Shown here: positions 3,350-28,559 of the stretch, piece after piece
How the letters are laid out: every line of letters starts with the position of its first letter
How positions within the stretch are numbered: position 1 is the stretch's first letter
NCBI GenBank assembly: GCA_964352365.1
Contig: CAYGRX010000001.1
Span: 1 to 53,291, forward strand
Reading direction: 5' to 3'
Length of the DNA: 53,291 nucleotides
Source of the DNA: an uncultured Rickettsiales bacterium
GTDB lineage: Bacteria > Pseudomonadota > Alphaproteobacteria > Rickettsiales > UBA8987
Notes under the pieces: generated by a model
Database searches by the model: none
What the model was told of the DNA's origin: nothing
The model's input: only the letters and a program-made list of their open reading frames with translations
Position numbers and translations under genes: made by a program

Positions 3350-4224
3350 TTTGTATGATAAATAATATATATATACCTCTCAATAGATCAGTAATAGGAA
3401 TTTCTGGTGAGGACTCCACAAAGCTTTTACAAGGTATAATTTCAAACGACATTGAAAAAGTTACTGAGAAAAAAGCAATTTATACTTTTCAGCTAACTCC
3501 ACAGGGTAAATATCTTTTTGATTTTTTTATTTCTCTAAAAGATGGTCAATATCTTATAGATATAGCGGAAAGACAAAGGGATGAGTTTTTAAAAAAGTTA
3601 AAAATGTATAAGCTTCGTTCAAAAGTTGAAATAATTGATTTATCAACCCAGATGGAGGTGGTAAGTTTAATTGGGGATAAAGTTTTTCAAAAAATTGGTG
3701 AGGATGAAGATTCGGGTTCAGTTCATGAATTTTGTAAAGGGCATGCGTTTCTAGATCCTAGATCTAACCTTATGTATGCCCGTGCAATAATTGGTCGAGA
3801 TAACAATTATCAGGCATTCCAATCTCAAGAGTTTATGCTAGCTGAAGTTAAGGAATATAATAAATTAAGAATTGAAAATAATATTCCTGAAGGTGAGTTT
3901 GACCTTGTTCAAGATAAGTCCTACCCATTACAATTTAAAATGATTAATCTTAATGCTGTGGATTTTAAAAAGGGGTGTTACGTGGGGCAGGAAGTTACAG
4001 CCAGAACCTATCATAGGGGAGTGGTACGAAAGCAAGTTTTTTCTCTCGCCTGTGATTCAAAAATTACCCATGAAGGAAATTTTGATATTATTATATCAGA
4101 AAAGAGGGTCGGGAATTTCCTATCAAAATTGGAGAATAATTGCCTTGCTTTGTTAGATGTTGATTTTGCAACTAGCAATAAATCATTTGAATTTGAAGGT
4201 CATAAGTATACTATACGCCCATGA
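3346..4224 (+). CDS. ygfZ: YgfZ-type folate-binding protein (Fe-S cluster repair / tRNA modification associated)
   Basis: Signature KGCYVGQE near the C-terminus and an aminomethyltransferase-like N-terminal half. The true start may be the ATG at 3355. Confidence 0.75.
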   Translation: MICMINNIYIPLNRSVIGISGEDSTKLLQGIISNDIEKVTEKKAIYTFQLTPQGKYLFDFFISLKDGQYLIDIAERQRDEFLKKLKMYKLRSKVEIIDLSTQMEVVSLIGDKVFQKIGEDEDSGSVHEFCKGHAFLDPRSNLMYARAIIGRDNNYQAFQSQEFMLAEVKEYNKLRIENNIPEGEFDLVQDKSYPLQFKMINLNAVDFKKGCYVGQEVTARTYHRGVVRKQVFSLACDSKITHEGNFDIIISEKRVGNFLSKLENNCLALLDVDFATSNKSFEFEGHKYTIRP

Positions 4225-5330
4225 AAAACATTAATGAAGCAAAGACTATAGTTGTAAAAATCGGCTCATCTTTATTAGCTGACAAAAAACGTAACTTAAG
4301 AAAAAAATGGATAGCCTCAGTAACTGAAGATATCGCAGAACTGGCAAAAACTGGCAAGGATATTGTTATAGTTTCATCAGGGGCGGTTGCGCTAGGTAGA
4401 AAAGTAATTTCGAAAAATAGGCAAAAGCTAAAAATTGAAGAAAAGCAAGCCGCTGCTGCCATAGGTCAACCACTCCTTATGACTGAATATCGCCGTGCCT
4501 TTGCTGAGTTTAAATATAAATGTGCAGAAATACTTATTACAATTTCTGATATTGAGAATAGAAGACGTTATTTGAATGCAAAAAACACAATTCAAAAGCT
4601 AATTGAGTACAATGTTATACCAATTGTTAATGAAAATGACACTGTTGCTACTAATGAACTTCGCTTTGGGGACAATGACCGCATATCAGCTTTAGTTGCT
4701 CAAATGATTCATGCAGATTTGCTAATAATACTTTCTGATATTGATGGTTTATATACAGATGATCCTAGTAAAAACCCCGATGCTAAATTTATTCCAGTAG
4801 TAACCGATATTGAGTCAGTAAGGGAGAGTGCGAAAGGTCCATCTTCAAGTGTTGGTAGTGGTGGTATGATCACCAAAATAGATGCTGCTGAAATCGCTGA
4901 TAATGCTGGTTGTTCAACGGTTATAACAAGAGGGAACGTTCAGCATCCTCTTAGGAAGCTATTTAAAGGTGGTATTCATACATTTTTTAAGTCAGGGGAT
5001 GATCCTATCTCAGCTAGAAAAAAATGGATACTTAACGCACCAATTTCTCATGGGGTTGTTATTGTTGATGATGGTTGTGAAAAAGCCTTAATAAACAAAA
5101 AAAGTCTACTTGCAGTTGGTATTACCAGCACTATTGGAGAGTATGGTAGAGGTGATGTAATTATTGTTAGAAACCAGCGCGGTGAAGATATAGCGCAAGG
5201 TATAACGGCATTCTCAAGTTTGGATGTTGAAAGGGTAAAAGGTAAACACTCCTCTGAAGTTGAGTCTATTTTAGGGTTCTCGGGTCGTGACGCAATTATA
5301 CATATTGATGACTTAGCTTTAATTAATTAG
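4221..5330 (+). CDS. proB: glutamate 5-kinase with C-terminal PUA domain
   Basis: VVKIGSSLL, VSSGAVALG, NENDTVATNELRFGDNDRISALVA, GSGGMITKI. ATGA overlap with the ygfZ stop. Confidence 0.9.
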   Translation: MKNINEAKTIVVKIGSSLLADKKRNLRKKWIASVTEDIAELAKTGKDIVIVSSGAVALGRKVISKNRQKLKIEEKQAAAAIGQPLLMTEYRRAFAEFKYKCAEILITISDIENRRRYLNAKNTIQKLIEYNVIPIVNENDTVATNELRFGDNDRISALVAQMIHADLLIILSDIDGLYTDDPSKNPDAKFIPVVTDIESVRESAKGPSSSVGSGGMITKIDAAEIADNAGCSTVITRGNVQHPLRKLFKGGIHTFFKSGDDPISARKKWILNAPISHGVVIVDDGCEKALINKKSLLAVGITSTIGEYGRGDVIIVRNQRGEDIAQGITAFSSLDVERVKGKHSSEVESILGFSGRDAIIHIDDLALIN

Positions 5331-5340
5331 TTAAATTACA

Positions 5341-5826
5341 ATGATAGTTAGGGAATTTAAATCTTCTGATGAAAATTCAGTTTTAGAAATAATATCTTCA
5401 GCTTTTTCTAAAGGGGATACTTATCCATATGATCCAGACTTATCTAAAAAAGAATTTGCTGAAATTTGGTTTTCTTCAGATAAAAAAGTTTTTGTAGCAG
5501 AGTCTGAAAAAGCAGAAATCTTAGGTACTTTTTACATAAAACCCAATCAACCATCATTAGGATCGCATATCTGTAATGCGGGGTTTGTAGTATGTGATAA
5601 ATCTAAGGGTAAGGGTGTTGGAAAAGCAATGGCAGAATTTTCTCTTCAAAAAGCAAGGGAGCTTGGCTATTTAGCGATGCAATTTAATTTAGTTTTGGCT
5701 GACAACACTGCCTCCTTAAAAATTTGGGAGAATCTTGGGTTTTCTAAAATTGGTTTAGTTCCAGAAGCATTTAAAAGTAAAAATGGTGATTTTGTTGATG
5801 CTTATATAATTTATAAAAAGCTATAA
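5341..5826 (+). CDS. GNAT-family N-acetyltransferase
   Basis: Acetyl-CoA binding motif region KGKGVGKAMAEFSLQKARELGY and typical ~160-aa size. Confidence 0.75.
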   Translation: MIVREFKSSDENSVLEIISSAFSKGDTYPYDPDLSKKEFAEIWFSSDKKVFVAESEKAEILGTFYIKPNQPSLGSHICNAGFVVCDKSKGKGVGKAMAEFSLQKARELGYLAMQFNLVLADNTASLKIWENLGFSKIGLVPEAFKSKNGDFVDAYIIYKKL

Positions 5827-5930
5827 AAGCCATATTATAGTAAAAAATACTTGGCATTATAAAAAAGCTAATATATAAAACCCTCACCTTAATGTGACGC
5901 TAGTTTCTTTACTAGCACATTTCCCAAATT

Positions 5931-6007
5931 GCGGGTGTAGCTCAGCTGGTTAGAGCGTCGGCCTGTCACGCCGAAGGTCGCGGGTTCGAGTCCCGTCACT
6001 CGCGCCA
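5931..6007 (+). tRNA. tRNA-Asp (GUC)
   Basis: Acceptor stem GCGGGTG/CACTCGC, anticodon loop CCTGTCACG, T arm GCGGGTTCGAGTCCCGT, encoded CCA. Confidence 0.9.
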
Positions 6008-6035
6008 CTATTTTAGTGGCAGTTATTTAACTAAA

Positions 6036-6530
6036 TCAATCATAATTAACTTCAACTAAGAAAGCTGGCTGATAGTTACCAGTGGTAATTTCTGGTTCAA
6101 CCCATAATCTTGAAAATATACTCATTTCCACGCCTATGTTCGTCGGTGCTGAAACATTTGAAACTCCTTGCCTTAAGCGCAAGACATCACCATTATATAC
6201 CCCATTAATTCTTCTAAATTTCAATTCGGGATGTGTATTTAAGTCAAGCGCACGAATGTTAATTGTTTCTGTATCCGAGCCAGTAATTTGAATTAAGCCA
6301 TTTTGAACGGGGCTACTATCAAGAATATTTGCAGTTCCTTCTGAAGTTCCATTTCTTCTTACTCCAACCCAAACTCTTTCAGTTGGTTTTTCTATTACTC
6401 CAAAATTAAGCCTGGACAGCTCTGTAATCCTTAGTGGGCTTAGTAGTTTTATATTGCTATTTCCGTTGAAGCTAGCAAAAGACTGGCTAGCAAAAAACGA
6501 TATAACTAAAGTTATAATTAGTTTTTTCAT
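6036..6530 (-). CDS. secreted beta-rich protein of unknown function (DUF4402-like, tentative)
   Basis: Signal peptide MKKLIITLVISFFASQSFA. The LNFGVI motif early in the mature part resembles DUF4402 proteins. Confidence 0.45.
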   Translation of the reverse strand: MKKLIITLVISFFASQSFASFNGNSNIKLLSPLRITELSRLNFGVIEKPTERVWVGVRRNGTSEGTANILDSSPVQNGLIQITGSDTETINIRALDLNTHPELKFRRINGVYNGDVLRLRQGVSNVSAPTNIGVEMSIFSRLWVEPEITTGNYQPAFLVEVNYD

Positions 6531-6844
6531 AAGTCGTTGAGTTTTACTGATTCTAATCTTTATTATAGCACATAAAACTTTAACTAAAGGTAAATATGAT
6601 TCTCTTATAAATTGAATAAAATTTTATATTTCCAGTAAAAATGGAAAGGTGTTGGGTGCAAGTCATTTTACTGTAACGGCCTTTATAGTCTTCCTATAAA
6701 CTATTGTAATATTTTAAGTGAGGTGATAAATCTTTAATATAAAATTTAATATTAAAAAAGGTCTGCCGCTATGACAATAAAATCTTACTTTCACTAAACT
6801 CAAATTTACTTATTTCCATATCAGATGCTTTTCTAAGGGAAAAA

Positions 6845-7714
6845 GTGGAAGAAAATTATTCTATGCCTCCTAAGTCCGAAGGTTTGGTTCAGCAAACAAA
6901 ACCCTATGACAAAGACACTGCTAAGTCATGTGATGGTGAAAAGCCTCATATCTTTAACGGTACAGTCCAAGATGATAAAATGAAAGGGACTCAATGTGAT
7001 GATTATATGTATGGTTATGAGGGGAGTGACATAATTTATAGTTACGCTGGTGATGATTATATTGTTAACGGCAAAGGTAGTGATGAAATACATGGTGGCG
7101 AAGGATATGATATATTAGACTTCTCTAACTATACAAATAATTCTGGTAGTATTAGCATGCAAACCCAGGTCTGGGTTAATACTGGTTTTATACGAATAAT
7201 TGACCATGATGGCTTAATTTCTGGAGGATCTAATCAGTTTGAGGTTATAGATGATTTATTTAATATCTCAGGTACTCAAACATCAGTAAATTCATACTTT
7301 GGTATTGAGGAGATTATTGGAACAGATTTAAACGATGTTATTATATCAAATATTTCCCTTAACAATGTTGAAACTATTAGAGGTGGTGAAGGTGATGACT
7401 ATTTACTCGGAAGGTATTTGCAAGATGCAATCTATGGTGGTGAAGGTGATGACATATTCAACCTAACGGGCGCTTCGAAAAACACAGTATATGGTGGTGA
7501 AGGCAATGATATATTCAGATTTACTGGTCTTTACGAACCATTTGAAGGTGAAAATGACTTCAACAAAATAATGGATTTTGAGCATGGTAATGATTATTTT
7601 ATACTGGATGAGAATGTTTATGGAAGCTATTCAGATTTAGAAATTTATAGGGAAAATGGCTCAACGTTTATAACAACATCTTTTGAATCTGGTAATGAGT
7701 TTATTGCGCCTTAA
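6845..7714 (+). CDS. RTX-type calcium-binding repeat protein (possibly truncated by a premature TAA, see findings)
   Basis: Repeated GGxGxD nonapeptides: GGEGYDILD, GGEGDDYLLG, GGEGDDIFN, GGEGNDIFR. GTG start in the ORF track. Confidence 0.7.
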   Translation: MEENYSMPPKSEGLVQQTKPYDKDTAKSCDGEKPHIFNGTVQDDKMKGTQCDDYMYGYEGSDIIYSYAGDDYIVNGKGSDEIHGGEGYDILDFSNYTNNSGSISMQTQVWVNTGFIRIIDHDGLISGGSNQFEVIDDLFNISGTQTSVNSYFGIEEIIGTDLNDVIISNISLNNVETIRGGEGDDYLLGRYLQDAIYGGEGDDIFNLTGASKNTVYGGEGNDIFRFTGLYEPFEGENDFNKIMDFEHGNDYFILDENVYGSYSDLEIYRENGSTFITTSFESGNEFIAP

Positions 7715-7924
7715 ATCGAGTTGCTAGGCGAGTATGATCTAACTAGCTCTGATTTTATATTTGCAGTATAACTTATGTTGCAAAACTTCAAGATAGAATA
7801 TCTTTATTTGCGCTAAATTTATACATTTTTCAGTTTAGGTTGCGGCTAGATGATGCTTAATGTAACTCTAGTTAGAGTTTAGTGTGCGAACTGCTCAACC
7901 CATTATTTAATCAAAATCATTTAA

Positions 7925-9181
7925 TTGATGTCAAAAGCCCAAAAAATTGCTGTTTTAGATATTGCTAGCAGTAAAGTAGTTTGTGTTATTGCATCAGTAA
8001 ATGGAGATCAAATTCCTAAAATTCTTGGTTTCGGTCATCAGCTTTCAGAAGGTGTTAGAGCAGGAATTATAATCGATATTAAAAAAGCAGAACGTTCTAT
8101 TTTAGCGGCTCTTAACGCAGCAGAAAAAATGGCAGGTGAAACTGTTGATGAGGCTTATATCAACATTTCTGGTGCAACAATAAATTCTAGCCATATTAAT
8201 ATTGAAACAAAAATTTCTGGTCATGAAGTAACATTCAAAGATTTAGATTTAATGCTGAATAATGGCAATGATCTAATTGTTAATGATGAAACTGAAATTA
8301 TTCAGTCAATGCCGCTTGGTTATAAAATTGATGATAGTGAGGGGATAAAAGACCCTATAGGTATGTTTGGTCAGGTAATATCAACTAACCTTCATGTTGT
8401 TACTGCTTCAAAGACTTCAGTTAAAAACATTCGTAACTGTTTGGCGAAATGCCATGTTTCTGTAAAAGGATTTATAGTATCATCTTTTGCCTCTGGTCTT
8501 GCAACTCTTAGTGAGGATGAATCTGAAATTGGTGTAACCATGCTTGATATAGGGGCGGGAAACACGTCGATCGCAATATTTTCTGAAGGTTATCCCGTTT
8601 ATTTTGATTCGATCCCAGTTGGAGGAAACCATATAACTAAAGATATCGCTCTAGGGTTGTCAGTTAGTCAACCATTTGCTGAAAGGTTAAAGGTGATTCA
8701 TGGAAACGCAGTTTCAACGGATAATGATGACCTTGATAATATTGAGATTATGGATGAAGAAGATAACCTCGGATCAGTGAAATCAATTACTAAAGCTGAG
8801 TTAACCTCAATTATAAGGCCAAGGGTTGAAGAGATATTAGAGTTAGCAAAAAATAATTTGGAGAAAAGTGGATTATATTCAATTTCAGGCAATAAAGTAG
8901 TTATAACTGGTGGTTCATCACAGCTTCAAGGTTTGAAAGAGGTGGCAAATTTTACCTTCAATAAACATGCAAAAATCTCTTTTCCTAAAGAAGTTAAAGG
9001 TTTGCCAGAATCAGCTAAGGGGCCAGCTTTTTCAACGGCGATTGGGATGGTTATCCATGTTGCGGAGATAAAATCTAAAAAAGAGGTTAGGGGGAAGTTT
9101 AGTCCAATGGAAATGGTGTCCTCCTCAAATTCTTCAAATAAATCTTTCAGAATCGTTGAATGGTTTAAGAGAAACTTCTAA
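7925..9181 (+). CDS. ftsA: cell division protein FtsA
   Basis: Actin-fold motifs LDIASSKVVCVI, LDIGAGNTSIAIF, VITGGSSQLQGL. The ATG at 7928 is the likely start. Confidence 0.9.
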   Translation: MMSKAQKIAVLDIASSKVVCVIASVNGDQIPKILGFGHQLSEGVRAGIIIDIKKAERSILAALNAAEKMAGETVDEAYINISGATINSSHINIETKISGHEVTFKDLDLMLNNGNDLIVNDETEIIQSMPLGYKIDDSEGIKDPIGMFGQVISTNLHVVTASKTSVKNIRNCLAKCHVSVKGFIVSSFASGLATLSEDESEIGVTMLDIGAGNTSIAIFSEGYPVYFDSIPVGGNHITKDIALGLSVSQPFAERLKVIHGNAVSTDNDDLDNIEIMDEEDNLGSVKSITKAELTSIIRPRVEEILELAKNNLEKSGLYSISGNKVVITGGSSQLQGLKEVANFTFNKHAKISFPKEVKGLPESAKGPAFSTAIGMVIHVAEIKSKKEVRGKFSPMEMVSSSNSSNKSFRIVEWFKRNF

Positions 9182-9190
9182 AAGAAGTAC

Positions 9191-9928
9191 ATGACTAGAT
9201 ATAAACTTAAAATTGAATATGATGGAACTGGCATTCATGGGTGGCAACGCCAAAAAAATGACCTAACTTTGCAGGAAATTTTTGAAGATTCACTCTATAA
9301 ACTTACTAATGAAAAAATTGAAGTTGTTGCAAGTGGTCGAACGGATGCAGGAGTTCATGCGTTTGGACAGGTTGTGCATTTTGATTTGAATAAAGATTGG
9401 GATGAATTTAAAATTCTAACAGGGCTAAATCACCACCTTATTAGAAAATCTATTTCAGTCCTATCCTCAAAAAAGGTATCTGATGATTTTCATTCAAGGT
9501 TTTCAGCTAAAAAAAGATATTATAGATATATCATATTAAATAGAAAATCTCCTTCGCCTCTTTATAGGGGCAGGGCTTGGCACGTTGTAAATAAACTTGA
9601 TACTAAAAAGATGCGTGATGCAGCAAAGTACCTTATTGGTACTCATGACTTTTCAAGTTTTAGAGCATCGGAATGTCAGTCTAAAAACCCTATTAAAACT
9701 TTGGAATCAATAGATATTACTGAAAAGGGAGATCAAATAATTTTTGATATATCAGCCATTTCATTCCTTCACCACCAATGCAGAAACATGGTAGGTACTT
9801 TAAAGGAGGTTGGTGAAGGGAAAATTCACCCAGAGGATATTTCTGCAATAATTGAATCAAAAAGTCGTAGCGAAGCTGGTGTTACTGCTCCAGCTCATGG
9901 GCTATATTTTATGAAGGTTGAATATTAA
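9191..9928 (+). CDS. truA: tRNA pseudouridine(38-40) synthase TruA
   Basis: YDGTGIHGWQRQ, catalytic GRTDAGVHA, FLHHQCRNMVG. Confidence 0.9.
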   Translation: MTRYKLKIEYDGTGIHGWQRQKNDLTLQEIFEDSLYKLTNEKIEVVASGRTDAGVHAFGQVVHFDLNKDWDEFKILTGLNHHLIRKSISVLSSKKVSDDFHSRFSAKKRYYRYIILNRKSPSPLYRGRAWHVVNKLDTKKMRDAAKYLIGTHDFSSFRASECQSKNPIKTLESIDITEKGDQIIFDISAISFLHHQCRNMVGTLKEVGEGKIHPEDISAIIESKSRSEAGVTAPAHGLYFMKVEY

Positions 9929-9931
9929 TAA

Positions 9932-10708
9932 TTAATGATCTTGTAACTTTACCTTTATAGGTCCTTCTGCATTTCCATGTACAAACTGATCAACATATTC
10001 ATTGCCGCTTTTATATATGTTAGCAGGGCTTCCTGTCCATATGAGTTGGCCTTCATAAATCATTGAAATTTTATCCGCGATTTTTGTGGCACTTGCCATA
10101 TCATGCGTGATAGTAACTGCCGTTGCGTTGAGCTCTTTTGTACATTTAACGATCAAATTGTTAATAACATCACTCATGATAGGATCTAGGCCAGTTGTAG
10201 GCTCATCAAAAAATATAATTTCTGGCTCAGTTGCAATTGCTCTAGCCAAGCTTATACGCTTTTGCATTCCACCACTTAGTTCTGCAGGAAATAAATCTGC
10301 AATTTCCTTGTCCATACCAACTTGCATTATTTTTTCTTCAGCGATACTTCTGGCCTTATCCCTGCTCATGCCTTCTGCATATACTAGTCCGAATGCAACA
10401 TTCTCCCAAATTGGCAAACTGTCAAACAGCGCACCACCTTGGAATAAATATCCAAATTTATGCATTATTTCATTCCTGCGTTTACCTGAAAGGTTGGAGG
10501 TCTCCTCGCCGTCAATTTTTATTGATCCACTATCTGGGTTCATAAGCCCAATTATATTTTTGATCAAAACGGATTTACCTGTCCCACTTCCGCCAATTAC
10601 CACTAATGATTCACCAGTGTTAACTTCCATATCTACTCCACGTAAAACATGTTTGTTTCCGAAGCTTTTTTTTACGCTGCTTAGCGCTATTTTAGGGGGC
10701 TTTGACAT
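9932..10708 (-). CDS. ABC transporter ATP-binding protein, MlaF-like; no permease gene adjacent
   Basis: Walker A GGSGTGKS, signature LSGGMQKR, Walker B IIFFDEPTTGLD, C-terminal FVHGNAEGP tail as in Mla-type ATPases. Confidence 0.75.
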   Translation of the reverse strand: MSKPPKIALSSVKKSFGNKHVLRGVDMEVNTGESLVVIGGSGTGKSVLIKNIIGLMNPDSGSIKIDGEETSNLSGKRRNEIMHKFGYLFQGGALFDSLPIWENVAFGLVYAEGMSRDKARSIAEEKIMQVGMDKEIADLFPAELSGGMQKRISLARAIATEPEIIFFDEPTTGLDPIMSDVINNLIVKCTKELNATAVTITHDMASATKIADKISMIYEGQLIWTGSPANIYKSGNEYVDQFVHGNAEGPIKVKLQDH

Positions 10709-25545: not shown

Positions 25546-25601
25546 CTTGGTTGCGAAGGCTCGCATCTGTGTTTTTTGTCATCGGTTTTACGTTAATTAA
25601 C
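25546..25601 (+). repeat. tRNA-fMet 3'-end-like direct repeat A
   Basis: CTTGGTTGCGAAGGCT matches the complement of the tRNA-fMet 3' end (28481-28496) at 15/16. The next ~40 nt are homologous to repeat B. Confidence 0.7.
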
Positions 25602-25628
25602 ATAGCAATATTTTTTTGTTTTAAAACT

Positions 25629-25658
25629 CTTGAAATACGTTTTTGTGCTAACTAAATA
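25629..25658 (+). promoter_or_regulatory. putative heat-shock (RpoH/sigma32-type) promoter of the Hsp20 gene
   Basis: CTTGAAA-N16-CTAAATA. The same two elements at the same spacing occur upstream of the second Hsp20 gene. Confidence 0.5.
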
Positions 25659-25768
25659 TTTTCTCGTAAGTTGCCACATGGGACTTGCATCGGGCACTGG
25701 CGAAAGGTTTAACCTTTGGGTGCGCTTGTGTTCGTTTTATTTTTAACTTTGCTAAATAGGAGGTTATT

Positions 25769-26245
25769 ATGACTAGAACAGCATTATCATTATCACCATT
25801 ATTTCGTTCAACTGTTGGATTTGACAAGTTTGACGAATTATTCAACTCAGTATTAAATGCTGAGGAAGCATCCGCAACATCGTACCCGCCATATAATATT
25901 GAAAAACGCGGCGAAGATGATTACACCATAACAATGGCAATTGCGGGTTTTGGTGAGGAAGACATCACCATTCAAACTCAAAATAATGAGTTAATCGTTT
26001 CTGGTAAAATAGAAGACAAAACGGAAGATGATGAGGTTGAGTATCTTCACAAAGGCATAGCAACAAGAGCTTTTGAAAGAAGCTTTAAATTAGCCGATCA
26101 CATGATTGTGACAGATGCTGATTTAAGAAATGGACTTTTAAAAATTAATCTTGTGCGTGAAATCCCAGAAGAAAAGAAACCTAGATTGATTTCAATTAAT
26201 AGTAACGATACTAAAAAGTTGGAAAATAAAAAATCTAAAAAGTAG
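25769..26245 (+). CDS. small heat-shock protein, Hsp20/IbpA family (cytoplasmic)
   Basis: Alpha-crystallin domain: YPPYNIEKRGEDDYTITMAIAGFGEEDITI...GLLKINLVREIPEE. AGGAGG SD. Confidence 0.85.
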   Translation: MTRTALSLSPLFRSTVGFDKFDELFNSVLNAEEASATSYPPYNIEKRGEDDYTITMAIAGFGEEDITIQTQNNELIVSGKIEDKTEDDEVEYLHKGIATRAFERSFKLADHMIVTDADLRNGLLKINLVREIPEEKKPRLISINSNDTKKLENKKSKK

Positions 26246-26266
26246 GTTTATTACTTAATAAAAAAA

Positions 26267-26293
26267 GCCCCGTAAGATAATAACTTGCGGGGC
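26267..26293. terminator. bidirectional intrinsic terminator between the two Hsp20 genes
   Basis: GCCCCGTAAG-ATAATAA-CTTGCGGGGC, a 10-bp stem with one G-U pair, flanked by an A-run upstream and T/A-rich sequence downstream. Confidence 0.7.
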
Positions 26294-26321
26294 TAAAATA
26301 ATTTATAATAATTATTATAGA

Positions 26322-26849
26322 TTATAAAGTTAACTTTCTAGATTTAGGCTTTTCTGGTTCTATTTTTGGAATTGAGATTTCTAAAACACCATCTTTATAG
26401 CTGGTTTTTGCATTTTCTATATCAGCCTTTACAGGAAGCCTTAAGCTTCTTTTAAACTCCCCATAAGAACGTTCAGAAAGACGGTAATTTTCAGATTCCT
26501 CTTCCTTGTTAGATTCCCTTTTACCACTGACGGTTAAATGAGTTTCGTGAAGATCAATCTCAATATTGTCTTTATCTATTCCTGGAATATCAACTTTGAC
26601 AATCATATTATCATCATTATTAATCAAGTCCATTTTTGGATATGAATCATAATTTTGATAATAAACTTTCAAAGGTAGTTGGGAGCTAATTCCAAAACTG
26701 TCAAACATTCTATCCATCTTTGCATGCATAGCGCAGAAAGGATCATTAGAACAAGAATATGCTTTCGCATAACCTACATTGGCACCAATAATAACAGGTG
26801 CTAATGCTAAAGATAATAAAGTCTTTTTTAACTTCATATCAGCCTCCAT
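26322..26849 (-). CDS. Hsp20-family protein with N-terminal signal peptide (predicted exported sHSP)
   Basis: MKLKKTLLSLALAPVIIGANVGYAKA leader, then an alpha-crystallin domain (MIVKVDIPGIDKDNIEIDL...GVLEISIPK). A GGAGG SD favours the ATG at 26837. Confidence 0.8.
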   Translation of the reverse strand: MEADMKLKKTLLSLALAPVIIGANVGYAKAYSCSNDPFCAMHAKMDRMFDSFGISSQLPLKVYYQNYDSYPKMDLINNDDNMIVKVDIPGIDKDNIEIDLHETHLTVSGKRESNKEEESENYRLSERSYGEFKRSLRLPVKADIENAKTSYKDGVLEISIPKIEPEKPKSRKLTL

Positions 26850-26897
26850 TTTTAATTAATGTTAATATATAAATAGCGAGTGAAACTCACTCAAAAT

Positions 26898-26927
26898 TAT
26901 TTAGGAGGTGATATAAACTATTTCAAG
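26898..26927 (-). promoter_or_regulatory. putative heat-shock (RpoH/sigma32-type) promoter of the exported Hsp20 gene
   Basis: The minus strand reads CTTGAAA-N16-CTAAATA, identical elements and spacing to 25629-25658. Confidence 0.5.
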
Positions 26928-26989
26928 GTTAATTGAAAATTACTAAATATCAAAACCAACCTAAGTGCTAAATATTAACTTTATTAAGA

Positions 26990-27044
26990 ATTGGTTGCGG
27001 AGGCTCGCATCGGTGTTTTCTTTCATCGGTTTGAGCTTGCTAAC
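26990..27044 (+). repeat. tRNA-fMet 3'-end-like direct repeat B
   Basis: TTGGTTGCGGAGGCT is identical to the complement of the tRNA-fMet 3' end plus 2 flanking nt. The remainder is ~85% identical to repeat A. Confidence 0.7.
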
Positions 27045-27636
27045 TATTTAGAATAATATTTCTGAAAGTCAAAGAAATTCGTTTTTTACGCTTAATTATT
27101 TGCCCATCAATTTTATCTGTTTTTCTACTTGCTATTCCGTGCTGCCATTTATAACGAGCATCATCTTTCAATATCAGCAAGCTCCTACGTGGTAATAAAA
27201 TTGATATTTTTTGGTTCGTTTCTGAATTTATAAAATCCATCACGCAATCTGAGGCAAGGCTTAAGCTGGCAACTGTTTCTTAAAAGCAAGGAACACAATC
27301 TATATGGCTTGAAATTCCTTGCCCTGACTCATATTCATTTACGATAACTTGATCAGGAAGCTTATTAAAGCAACGTTGCTCTAAAAGTCTTTTTGAGATT
27401 GGTTTTATAAAATCAGGAATATCTCCAACTTTAAAATCTTCTGTTAATTTTCTAGCCTTATAATCATATTTATATCCATAATGCTGAACCCTACGCTTAA
27501 GGTCAGTAAGCCAAGATTGTTTATCTATATTTTGAATTAGTTCTAATTCTTCATCCTCTGAAATAAAAGTATCAACTAAAGTTAAGCCATCTACTAGGTC
27601 TTGGGGTTTGGGTTCAAATTTGGTAAATAAGTTCAT
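27040..27636 (-). pseudogene. AlkB-like Fe(II)/2-oxoglutarate dioxygenase, interrupted by an in-frame TAA
   Basis: N-part ...VIVNEYESGQGISSHIDCVPCF, stop at 27280-27282, then the same frame continues ETVASLSLASDCVMDF...RISLTFR. HxD and the distal R-x-S-x-T-x-R motifs lie on either side of the stop. Confidence 0.75.
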
Positions 27637-28430
27637 AATTTAAATATATAGGTGCAGAAAGAATCATAGTCTTCAATAGCACTTTCATCTTTGTTAGTCA
27701 TACTGTGAATATATTCATGAAAATCATTCGGGTCAAAACTATAAATTTCTGGTTCATTAAAACCTGTTTCTTCAGCGGCTTCATCAAAATGAAAAACAGC
27801 TCTATAATATGAGCTATTAACAGTTGTAATTAAAACCTTTCCATCTTCTTTCAAAACTTGCATTGCACTTTTTAAAAACTCTCTGATAAGAATATAGTTA
27901 GGGTTTCTACCTTCGATTGGTTCTCTACTTCCAACGTTCGGAAATTGAAAAATAATATTATCAAATTTCTTGTTTTCAAAAGTATACTCTAGATTAGTAG
28001 CGTCTACTTCAAATAATATGTTAGCTCCATAGTTTGCTAAGTCTTCTGCATTTAAAATCGTAAGTTCAGAAACTTCATTTTCTGCTTCAAAAACAGTAGC
28101 GGTAATATTTTCGGGAACAATAGAATAATTCTCAACTAGGCTAAGGGCAAAACTGAAATTACCTTCCCCAACTAATAAAGTTTTTCCAAGTCTGACCTCT
28201 GAAACAAAATCAATTTTAGTTAGGCTGCCTTTTAAAAGGAAATTTAGTTTATTATCAATTTCTTTAAGATTTTTGATGTCTTCAAACAAGCCTAGGTTTA
28301 AACTTTTAATTTTTAAATCTGAGTTGAGTTTACTTAACCTATGTATTTCTCTTTGATAATTATTCATATAAAATCCATTTTTAATGAATTTTATATTTAG
28401 AAATTGTAATCGGGAAGTAGAGCTGCGCAA
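27633..28430 (-). CDS. DUF2431 / BMT5-like Rossmann-fold methyltransferase
   Basis: LLVGEGNFSFALSL, ATVFE, EVDATNL, FDNIIFQFPNVG follow the BMT5-like motif order. Its TGA overlaps the AlkB-like ATG (ATGA). The start may be the internal ATG at 28367. Confidence 0.65.
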   Translation of the reverse strand: MRSSTSRLQFLNIKFIKNGFYMNNYQREIHRLSKLNSDLKIKSLNLGLFEDIKNLKEIDNKLNFLLKGSLTKIDFVSEVRLGKTLLVGEGNFSFALSLVENYSIVPENITATVFEAENEVSELTILNAEDLANYGANILFEVDATNLEYTFENKKFDNIIFQFPNVGSREPIEGRNPNYILIREFLKSAMQVLKEDGKVLITTVNSSYYRAVFHFDEAAEETGFNEPEIYSFDPNDFHEYIHSMTNKDESAIEDYDSFCTYIFKL

Positions 28431-28482
28431 AATACACTTGCAACCAATTCATGCCTATAACATATTGATTTTATTAGATTCT

Positions 28483-28559
<77 letters not shown>

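Follow-up and report, generated by a model that had tools for sequence, protein, structure and literature searches.

The family PF10354 (DUF2431) of S-adenosylmethionine (SAM)-dependent methyltransferases has as its founding member yeast Bmt5, which forms m3U2634 in 25S rRNA, whereas the enzymes of the AlkB family by default remove N-methyl groups. Among the bacterial AlkB proteins, a group 2A was defined by van den Born et al. in 2009 (PMC2790896) and later renamed "bacterial ALKBH8" by Zdzalik et al. in 2014 (PMC4051686). The work of both groups revealed weak or negligible repair of methyl lesions by its members, and concluded that their natural substrate was not known and lay probably in RNA, so that the role and substrate of these enzymes have been an issue since 2009, even if dealkylation by the bacterial ALKBH8s has been seen in vitro (PMC4051686). 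Neither paper refers to an operon, to any neighbouring gene or to a gene for a methyltransferase, and within the literature searched the name "bacterial ALKBH8" appears only in Zdzalik et al. 2014 and no paper on bacteria mentions DUF2431. Here we describe a 53,291-nucleotide stretch from an uncultured Rickettsiales bacterium (contig CAYGRX010000001.1, positions 1 to 53,291; the window in what follows), where a gene for a BMT5-like methyltransferase overlaps a gene for an ALKBH8-like AlkB dioxygenase. Such a methyltransferase/AlkB module appears to be undescribed, and the locus of the window is a decaying copy of a mobile cassette in which a dedicated methyltransferase partner makes the question of the bacterial ALKBH8 substrate a testable one.

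The two genes and their linkage

The methyltransferase gene of the window (27633..28367, minus strand) is intact and encodes a protein of 244 aa. Its assignment to DUF2431/BMT5, as proposed in an initial annotation made from the sequence, was borne out by a Pfam match to PF10354 covering profile positions 1-167 of 168 (E 1.9e-32, 113.3 bits, cut-off 24.7) and by the presence of the GEGNFSF, DAT and FQFPNVG motifs. An alignment of 82 loci showed that the SAM-binding GEGNxSF and FxFP motifs are invariant, and a check of each position revealed that the window protein retains every family-invariant residue. Although the open reading frame spans 27633..28430 on the minus strand and had been annotated from the upstream TTG at 28430, the ATG at 28367 is the likely start because homologues begin there. 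In this regard, the idea that the family is mostly eukaryotic had to be abandoned, as PF10354 includes a large bacterial clade and is not essentially eukaryotic. The AlphaFold2 model of the protein (pLDDT 86) shows a Rossmann fold following an N-terminal two-helix hairpin, and its closest solved folds are those of tRNA/rRNA methyltransferases, with a TM-score of ~0.45 that corresponds to a generic Rossmann likeness and therefore does not pin down the substrate. No sequence-level match to the methyltransferase was found among solved structures, and NCBIfam gave no informative matches for the pair. The sole characterised relative of the protein makes m3U.

Downstream of the methyltransferase, and coupled to it as initially annotated, we find the AlkB gene (27040..27636, minus strand), whose ATG (27634-27636) overlaps the methyltransferase TGA (27633-27635) in an ATGA at 27633-27636. 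A single in-frame TAA at 27280..27282, already pointed out in that annotation, cuts the AlkB frame into pieces of 118 and 79 aa and makes the gene a pseudogene, so that the putative eraser is broken while the writer is intact. The stop comes after the HxD motif (HIDCVPCF) and before the distal half with its His and Arg residues, and it is the sole lesion in the frame: when read through, the sequence matches the AlkB profile PF13532 with an E-value of 7.5e-22 and 78.9 bits (cut-off 31.2), which agrees with the family originally proposed, and both halves still match on their own (9.2e-06 for the N-terminal and 2.1e-11 for the C-terminal one). The HxD...H iron triad and the R-x5-R residues for 2-oxoglutarate (2OG) are all kept (H111, D113, H166, R186 and R192). 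Solved structures were compared with the intact AlkB of a second pair, which the genome carries on contig C85. The human ALKBH8 AlkB domain matched with an E-value of 2.3e-32, the next clade with 1e-13 and Escherichia coli AlkB with 1e-3, and because the ALKBH8 domain is by far the closest the protein was assigned to group 2A, or bacterial ALKBH8. The window AlkB is ~53% identical to the RF enzyme of Rickettsia felis. The window AlkB is not one of the classical repair AlkBs, and it should not be assumed to be a classical N1/N3 demethylase, because the group 2A members studied so far repair m1A and m3C lesions poorly (PMC4051686).

Recurrent linkage of the two families had been set beforehand as the test of the pairing. 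In a set made of the best 80 of 126 methyltransferase-profile relatives from species-representative prokaryote genomes, plus five loci from close relatives, an AlkB gene lies directly downstream on the same strand in 84 out of 85 loci, and in the lone exception the contig stops 2 nt past the methyltransferase. The spacing between the aligned stretches of both genes goes from -10 to 98 nt, except for one locus (L010) with 795 nt, and the pairwise distances of the two proteins correlate with r = 0.83 (Mantel test, 0 of 999 permutations as high). Nearly all of these loci belong to Alphaproteobacteria, comprising metagenome-assembled genomes (MAGs) of Rickettsiales or Holosporales type, Micavibrio, Azospirillum, Rhodobacteraceae and Rhizobiales. 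No conserved third gene accompanies the pair, as the 137 flanking genes are spread over 117 Pfam families; they include Fic, ParD and integrases, with Fic as the commonest (5 of 137). In this line, the published primer for cloning RF matches exactly at the start of an R. felis AlkB gene that overlaps a BMT5-like methyltransferase by ATGA, and the R. felis enzyme studied in 2014 is thus the partner of such a methyltransferase.

The AlkB, in turn, is not tied to the methyltransferase. Of 400 evenly sampled alphaproteobacteria, 14 carry this type of AlkB, with the methyltransferase alongside in ~5 of them; one further AlkB adjoins a methyltransferase relic of 25 residues, and the remaining ones are solitary in varied contexts such as a Dcm/AbiE island. 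The small R. denitrificans plasmid pTB4 has the AlkB without a BMT5-like partner, and a tblastn search of the PLSDB plasmids with the methyltransferase gave no match, whereas the AlkB does match plasmids in this collection, where the close ones adjoin another methyltransferase or none. A second family of class-I methyltransferases, unrelated to the BMT5-like one, with DFGCGP...IIFNF...QNP motifs and no Pfam model, was found beside ALKBH8-like AlkB genes (L091:3064-4588, L114:4001-5821 and L097:3684-4484). Its members on Picosynechococcus plasmids and on a metagenome contig carrying a fusion of AlkB to a HicB-like antitoxin are mutual homologues (E 3e-23), and the alphaproteobacterial neighbour in L097 resembles them weakly, over the SAM-binding motifs. 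Since 84 of 85 methyltransferase loci have the AlkB, yet the AlkB is often solitary or beside another methyltransferase, the dependence looks one-sided: the methyltransferase would need the AlkB, and the AlkB does not need the methyltransferase. Such a pattern would be expected of a toxin whose retention depends on its antidote.

Other architectures of ALKBH8-like AlkB proteins were also observed, with fusions to NADAR, isochorismatase/nicotinamidase, DprA-like, Nudix or HicB-like antitoxin domains (P0125, P0136, P0142, P0144 and P0148), which suggests a wider role of these AlkBs in reversing base damage in nucleic acids. Three clusters look like fusions of the methyltransferase with the AlkB itself, and they were given little weight because one of them, at a contig end, resembles a frameshift artefact.

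Repeats, tRNA genes and copies of the cassette

The two genes are tightly packed on the minus strand between a tRNA-Met gene and a minus-strand Hsp20 gene. The tRNA-Met (CAT anticodon; 28483..28559, minus strand), identified by ARAGORN and by Rfam RF00005 with 62.7 bits, faces the cassette with its 3' end and is the putative integration target. Repeat finding and a pattern search revealed that a 15-nt core identical to the tRNA 3' end, TTGGTTGCGGAGGCT, forms an attL-like Repeat A at 28482..28496, and that the exact core returns at 26991-27005 within an attR-like Repeat B (26991..27031), which also comprises ~25 nt of cassette-end sequence. The pair is thus a 1.5-kb unit bracketed by repeats of the tRNA-Met 3' end; the two genes alone lie between the repeats, and no integrase was found there. 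Among the features that define a tRNA-associated island, the locus has the direct repeats of the tRNA 3' end and lacks an integrase of its own.

Direct repeats of 15-78 nt bracket just the pair in seven loci, namely the window and six others (L057, L049, L085, L087, L034 and L011), in units of 1.4-2.1 kb, whereas the longest match in an inverted-orientation control was ≤12 nt. In three of these islets the repeats are duplicated 3' halves of tRNA genes (~58 nt of a tRNA-Trp, ~50 nt of a tRNA-Phe and ~50 nt of a tRNA-like sequence), in L087 the repeat is a 15-nt sequence at the 3' end of a tRNA-Arg, and those of L034 (29 nt) and L011 (78 nt) have no tRNA assignment. A tRNA gene is found at ≤700 nt in 19 of 84 loci, where a rough estimate of the chance expectation is a few per cent, and its 3' end faces the cassette in all but one of the 19 (binomial probability ~4e-5). 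Among 40 relatives of the source genome, five carry the pair. Altogether, the pair is a compact, autonomous and mobile two-gene unit occurring in variable contexts.

The genome assembly, of 1.88 Mb in 271 contigs, contains the second pair already introduced on contig C85 (L002:832-2169), which has the end of an autotransporter gene on one side and a gene of the Fic family on the other, and around which no flanking repeats were found. Its AlkB is intact, with 197 aa, and its genes are separated by a 6-nt gap instead of the ATGA overlap of the window. The proteins of both copies share 68% (methyltransferase) and 75% (AlkB) identity, and synonymous sites are saturated, so that the copies are old, and dN/dS values of ~0.09 for the methyltransferase and ~0.06 for the AlkB indicate strong purifying selection. 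The codon of the C85 gene at the position of the TAA encodes Glu, and the divergence of the AlkB from its paralogue is no greater past the stop than ahead of it (nonsynonymous divergence, pN, of 0.128 and 0.156, respectively), for which reasons the lesion is deemed recent, or it is possibly an assembly error. Programmed read-through of the stop was also considered, and was ruled out by the in-frame stops of three lineages, which sit at different positions.

As for the rest of the locus, the leader that separates the tRNA from the methyltransferase start (28368..28481, minus strand) holds a motif, cttcccgatt, that is also present in the leader of the C85 copy. An Rfam scan of the cassette matched the tRNA alone, with no family for the leader; promoter-like matches were not commoner than in shuffled sequence, and five terminator-like matches were found against 0.9 expected. 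On the other side of Repeat B, a second cassette (25562-26990) carries two convergent Hsp20 open reading frames (25769..26245, plus strand, and 26322..26849, minus strand) and is ended by Repeat C (25547..25587), which combines a third copy of the tRNA core (25547-25561, one mismatch) with the same cassette-end sequence. These ~25 nt, common to Repeats B and C, occur at this locus only in the whole genome, and the tRNA-proximal ends of both cassettes (25547-28496) are also alike. The three copies of the tRNA core and the shared cassette ends therefore indicate two integrase-less cassettes stacked at the tRNA-Met. Seven relatives possess the upstream gshA-like gene, none of them with a tRNA-Met after it, so that an uninterrupted site was not demonstrable. 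For the source genome, the locus illustrates how cassettes stack at a tRNA gene and how one copy has recently decayed.

Toxin tips and the function of the pair

A profile search of 1.84 billion representative proteins gave 4025 matches to the methyltransferase profile, several of which are giant proteins with a BMT5-like domain at their extreme C-terminus. In one of them, P0296 (3244 aa), Ig-like, Calx-beta, cadherin and PKD repeats precede a PT-HINT pretoxin domain and the BMT5-like domain comes last, which is the architecture of a classical polymorphic toxin. Other giants begin with the DUF4157/eCIS_core marker, sometimes followed by Ntox1, before the BMT5-like domain. An N-terminal DUF4157 with a C-terminal toxin domain is the typical layout of toxins associated with extracellular contractile injection systems (eCIS) (Geller et al. 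2021, PMC8213781), and neither the eCIS survey (PMC8213781) nor the survey of polymorphic toxins (Zhang et al. 2012, PMC3482391) mentions a methyltransferase toxin domain, DUF2431 or AlkB. A separate observation among the profile matches was that of two proteins of 1921 aa (P0199) and 1277 aa (P0201) with seven and five matches each, apparently BMT5-like domains in tandem.

The surroundings of these toxins brought back the AlkB. In five out of the six loci examined, cyanobacterial or related, a conserved gene of ~175 aa comes after the toxin gene, and a convergent AlkB gene comes next (L117, L119, L120, L121 and L122; about 4001-10600 in each), whereas in the sixth and more distant one (L123) the small gene is present with no AlkB within 4 kb. 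The small gene, of no known family, looks like an immunity gene. The AlkBs adjacent to the toxins are 51-53% identical to that of the window, as near to it as the R. felis enzyme, and the window methyltransferase is 34% identical to a toxin tip over its whole catalytic domain. The two families are thus joined in another and very distinct arrangement, with the methyltransferase in a position reserved for toxins. Having no delivery domain and being encoded on the opposite strand, these AlkBs cannot be co-delivered partners of the toxins. The toxin-tip architecture holds for the relatives and not for the window gene, which encodes a stand-alone domain.

The reading that we consider best supported, and whose chances we judge to be about even, is that of a harmful nucleic-acid methylase paired with an AlkB that erases its marks as an antidote. 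This proposal, which takes up the writer/eraser or toxin/antidote idea of the initial annotation, is based on the one-sided dependence, the mobile cassette, the toxin-tip loci with the same AlkB, the swapping of partners and the fusions to HicB-like and NADAR domains. According to it, the BMT5-like enzyme would N-methylate nucleic-acid bases with SAM, most likely in RNA, and this methylation would harm the receiving cell; the coupled AlkB would oxidise the methyl groups off with Fe(II), 2OG and O2, and would thereby protect the carrier by a repair-type antidote or immunity. The pair would spread as an autonomous, integrase-less unit of 1.4-2.1 kb landing at the 3' ends of tRNA genes. In the window, the antidote gene would have been recently disabled by one nonsense codon, a loss that could be tolerated because the intact C85 pair can supply an AlkB, which probably covers in trans for the broken one.

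Several observations weigh against this proposal. In three lineages, an intact methylase persists next to an AlkB that is broken. In genome G218 (1.3 Mb) and in a Finniella MAG (L044) the methyltransferase looks intact, with its conserved residues kept, and the only AlkB-family gene has an in-frame TAG. A census of decay counted six loci where the methyltransferase is broken and the AlkB intact, and 3-4 loci with the reverse. Because lineages with a broken AlkB and an intact methylase persist, and because the census is roughly balanced, the methylase cannot be strongly lethal in every host. Moreover, a knock-out of the AlkB of Agrobacterium tumefaciens was viable and showed no phenotype with methyl methanesulfonate (MMS) or chloroacetaldehyde (CAA) (PMC4051686), although carriage of the methyltransferase by strain C58 was not confirmed; another Agrobacterium genome (L077) carries the pair, as does R. 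felis. In the same line, repair of methyl lesions by the enzymes of R. felis and R. denitrificans was poor, and an MMS-damaged RNA phage was not rescued by them (PMC4051686). Among defence systems, PADLOC found no fitting model, with a weak mad2 match for the methyltransferase and no model for the AlkB. Finally, the AlkB is by far nearest to ALKBH8, which is a hydroxylase of a biosynthetic pathway.

Two of the decaying or unusual loci deserve a separate description. In G218, the pair (L103, on contig C25, 2963-4206) lies inside a flagellar cluster, after flgB/flgC/fliE-like genes and before fliQ/fliR/flhB-like ones. In L101 (G087:C2), the methyltransferase has an in-frame stop, and genes for a RelE/HigB-like toxin, an HTH antitoxin and a protein of 195 aa separate it from the intact AlkB.

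The kinship with ALKBH8 is at the basis of the main alternative, which we regard as unlikely and in which the pair would carry out a two-step hypermodification of RNA: the first enzyme would add a methyl group or a methyl ester to a nucleoside of tRNA or rRNA, and the AlkB would hydroxylate it to a stable modification, the whole being a non-toxic accessory module. Parallels are found in ALKBH8 itself, where a Trm9-type methyltransferase is joined to an AlkB domain, and in NSUN3 followed by ALKBH1. The best solved-structure match of the AlkB (2.3e-32 against 1e-13) fits this scheme, as do the fixed order and translational coupling of methyltransferase and AlkB, the survival of lineages with an intact methylase and a broken AlkB, and the rare in-frame read-through fusions of both genes, at least one of which has the look of a frameshift artefact. 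A role in RNA modification, with a substrate similar to 5-methoxycarbonylmethyluridine (mcm5U), was also favoured in the published work on the bacterial enzymes (PMC2790896, PMC4051686), but no hydroxylation of mcm5U was seen with those of R. felis and R. denitrificans (PMC4051686). A hypermodification module would not explain why the methyltransferase tips PT-HINT and eCIS toxins, with an AlkB on the opposite strand and devoid of a delivery domain, nor the patchy and mobile distribution (5 of 40 relatives, repeat-flanked islets) and the frequently solitary AlkB. The chemistry speaks in the same direction: the only known activity of the methyltransferase family is N3-methylation, and it is well established that hydroxylation of an N-methyl group removes the mark and leaves no stable product.

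The methylase could instead be useful to the cell, placing a beneficial site-specific mark, for instance on rRNA or tRNA, against a toxin, an antibiotic or a phage, with the AlkB stripping off-target methylation and the methylase alone being mildly costly. A combination of methyltransferase and AlkB domains is also known from plant-virus replicases. Such a division of labour would cover alike the tight linkage, the survivors with a broken AlkB and the viable Agrobacterium knock-out; it gives no reason for a beneficial housekeeping-type mark to travel on repeat-flanked islets or for the domain to serve as the C-terminal payload of PT-HINT and eCIS toxins, and it comes without a known candidate for the beneficial target, so that we consider it quite improbable. 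Far less credible still is an export of both enzymes by intracellular alphaproteobacteria to rewrite the rRNA or tRNA marks of the host. The eukaryotic namesakes of both families (Bmt5 and ALKBH8), the many carriers of Rickettsiales or Holosporales type and the use of the domain as a delivered payload in other proteins would be in keeping with it, and the initial annotation had also thought of the methyltransferase as a eukaryote-like effector. Nothing, however, points to secretion of the stand-alone 244-aa protein, which has neither a signal peptide nor a delivery domain. Moreover, free-living Rhodobacteraceae, Azospirillum, Hoeflea and cyanobacteria carry the pair equally, and the bacterial enzymes were inactive on eukaryotic mcm5U tRNA (PMC4051686).

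Returning to the harmful methylase and its antidote, it is possible, and we propose it tentatively, that the pair represents the first family of SAM-dependent nucleic-acid methyltransferase toxins, which would act both as a stand-alone mobile cassette and as a payload of polymorphic and eCIS toxins, and whose immunity would come from an oxidative demethylase repairing the damage and not from binding of the toxin. If this were true, the bacterial ALKBH8 enzymes would gain a physiological substrate, and the eukaryotic Bmt5-like and ALKBH8 families could descend from a bacterial conflict module of this kind. If the methylase is toxic, base methylation would join the weapons of toxin-antitoxin, polymorphic-toxin and eCIS systems, with the second antidote after that of DarTG to act by enzymatic erasure of damage. 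In addition, an eraser requiring oxygen, iron and 2OG would tie the effect of the toxin to the metabolic state of the cell.

Relation to known systems

Among described proteins, the bacterial ALKBH8s of R. felis (RF), R. denitrificans (RD) and A. tumefaciens (AT) belong to the same family as the window AlkB, and the RF gene has the same ATGA-coupled partner. The differences are that the published work treats the AlkB alone, that the window copy is a pseudogene and that the R. denitrificans pTB4 gene is devoid of a BMT5-like partner. On the side of the methyltransferase, the window protein matches the full family profile with the same order of motifs as yeast Bmt5, from which the bacterial clade is set apart by a size of ~250 aa, an N-terminal helical hairpin of its own, its mobility, its ties to AlkB and its additional use as a toxin tip. 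Human ALKBH8, the closest solved structure, offers a similar functional union of an ALKBH8-type oxygenase with a SAM methyltransferase, but its Trm9-like partner is of another family and the enzyme leaves a stable modification on tRNA, in contrast to the removal of the mark that we favour here.

With regard to toxins, the PT-HINT and eCIS DUF4157 proteins (PMC3482391, PMC8213781) carry the same domain at the C-terminus, in the place of the toxin, and next to them come a small conserved gene and an AlkB of the same family, whereas in the window the domain stands alone without a delivery module. The unit as a whole also recalls the integrase-less tRNA islets, or cis-mobilisable elements, with which it shares the direct repeats of the tRNA 3' end, the stacked cassettes with similar ends and the lack of an internal integrase; it differs from them in its very small size (1.5 kb) and in that different lineages carry the same cargo at several different tRNA genes. 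The proposed logic is alike to that of DarT/DarG, a compact mobile pair with the toxin first, where the first gene writes a harmful base mark and the second one erases it. There is no sequence relationship between both systems, and the toxicity that we infer here would result from methylation countered by oxidative demethylation, in the place that ADP-ribosylation and a macrodomain hydrolase occupy in DarT/DarG.

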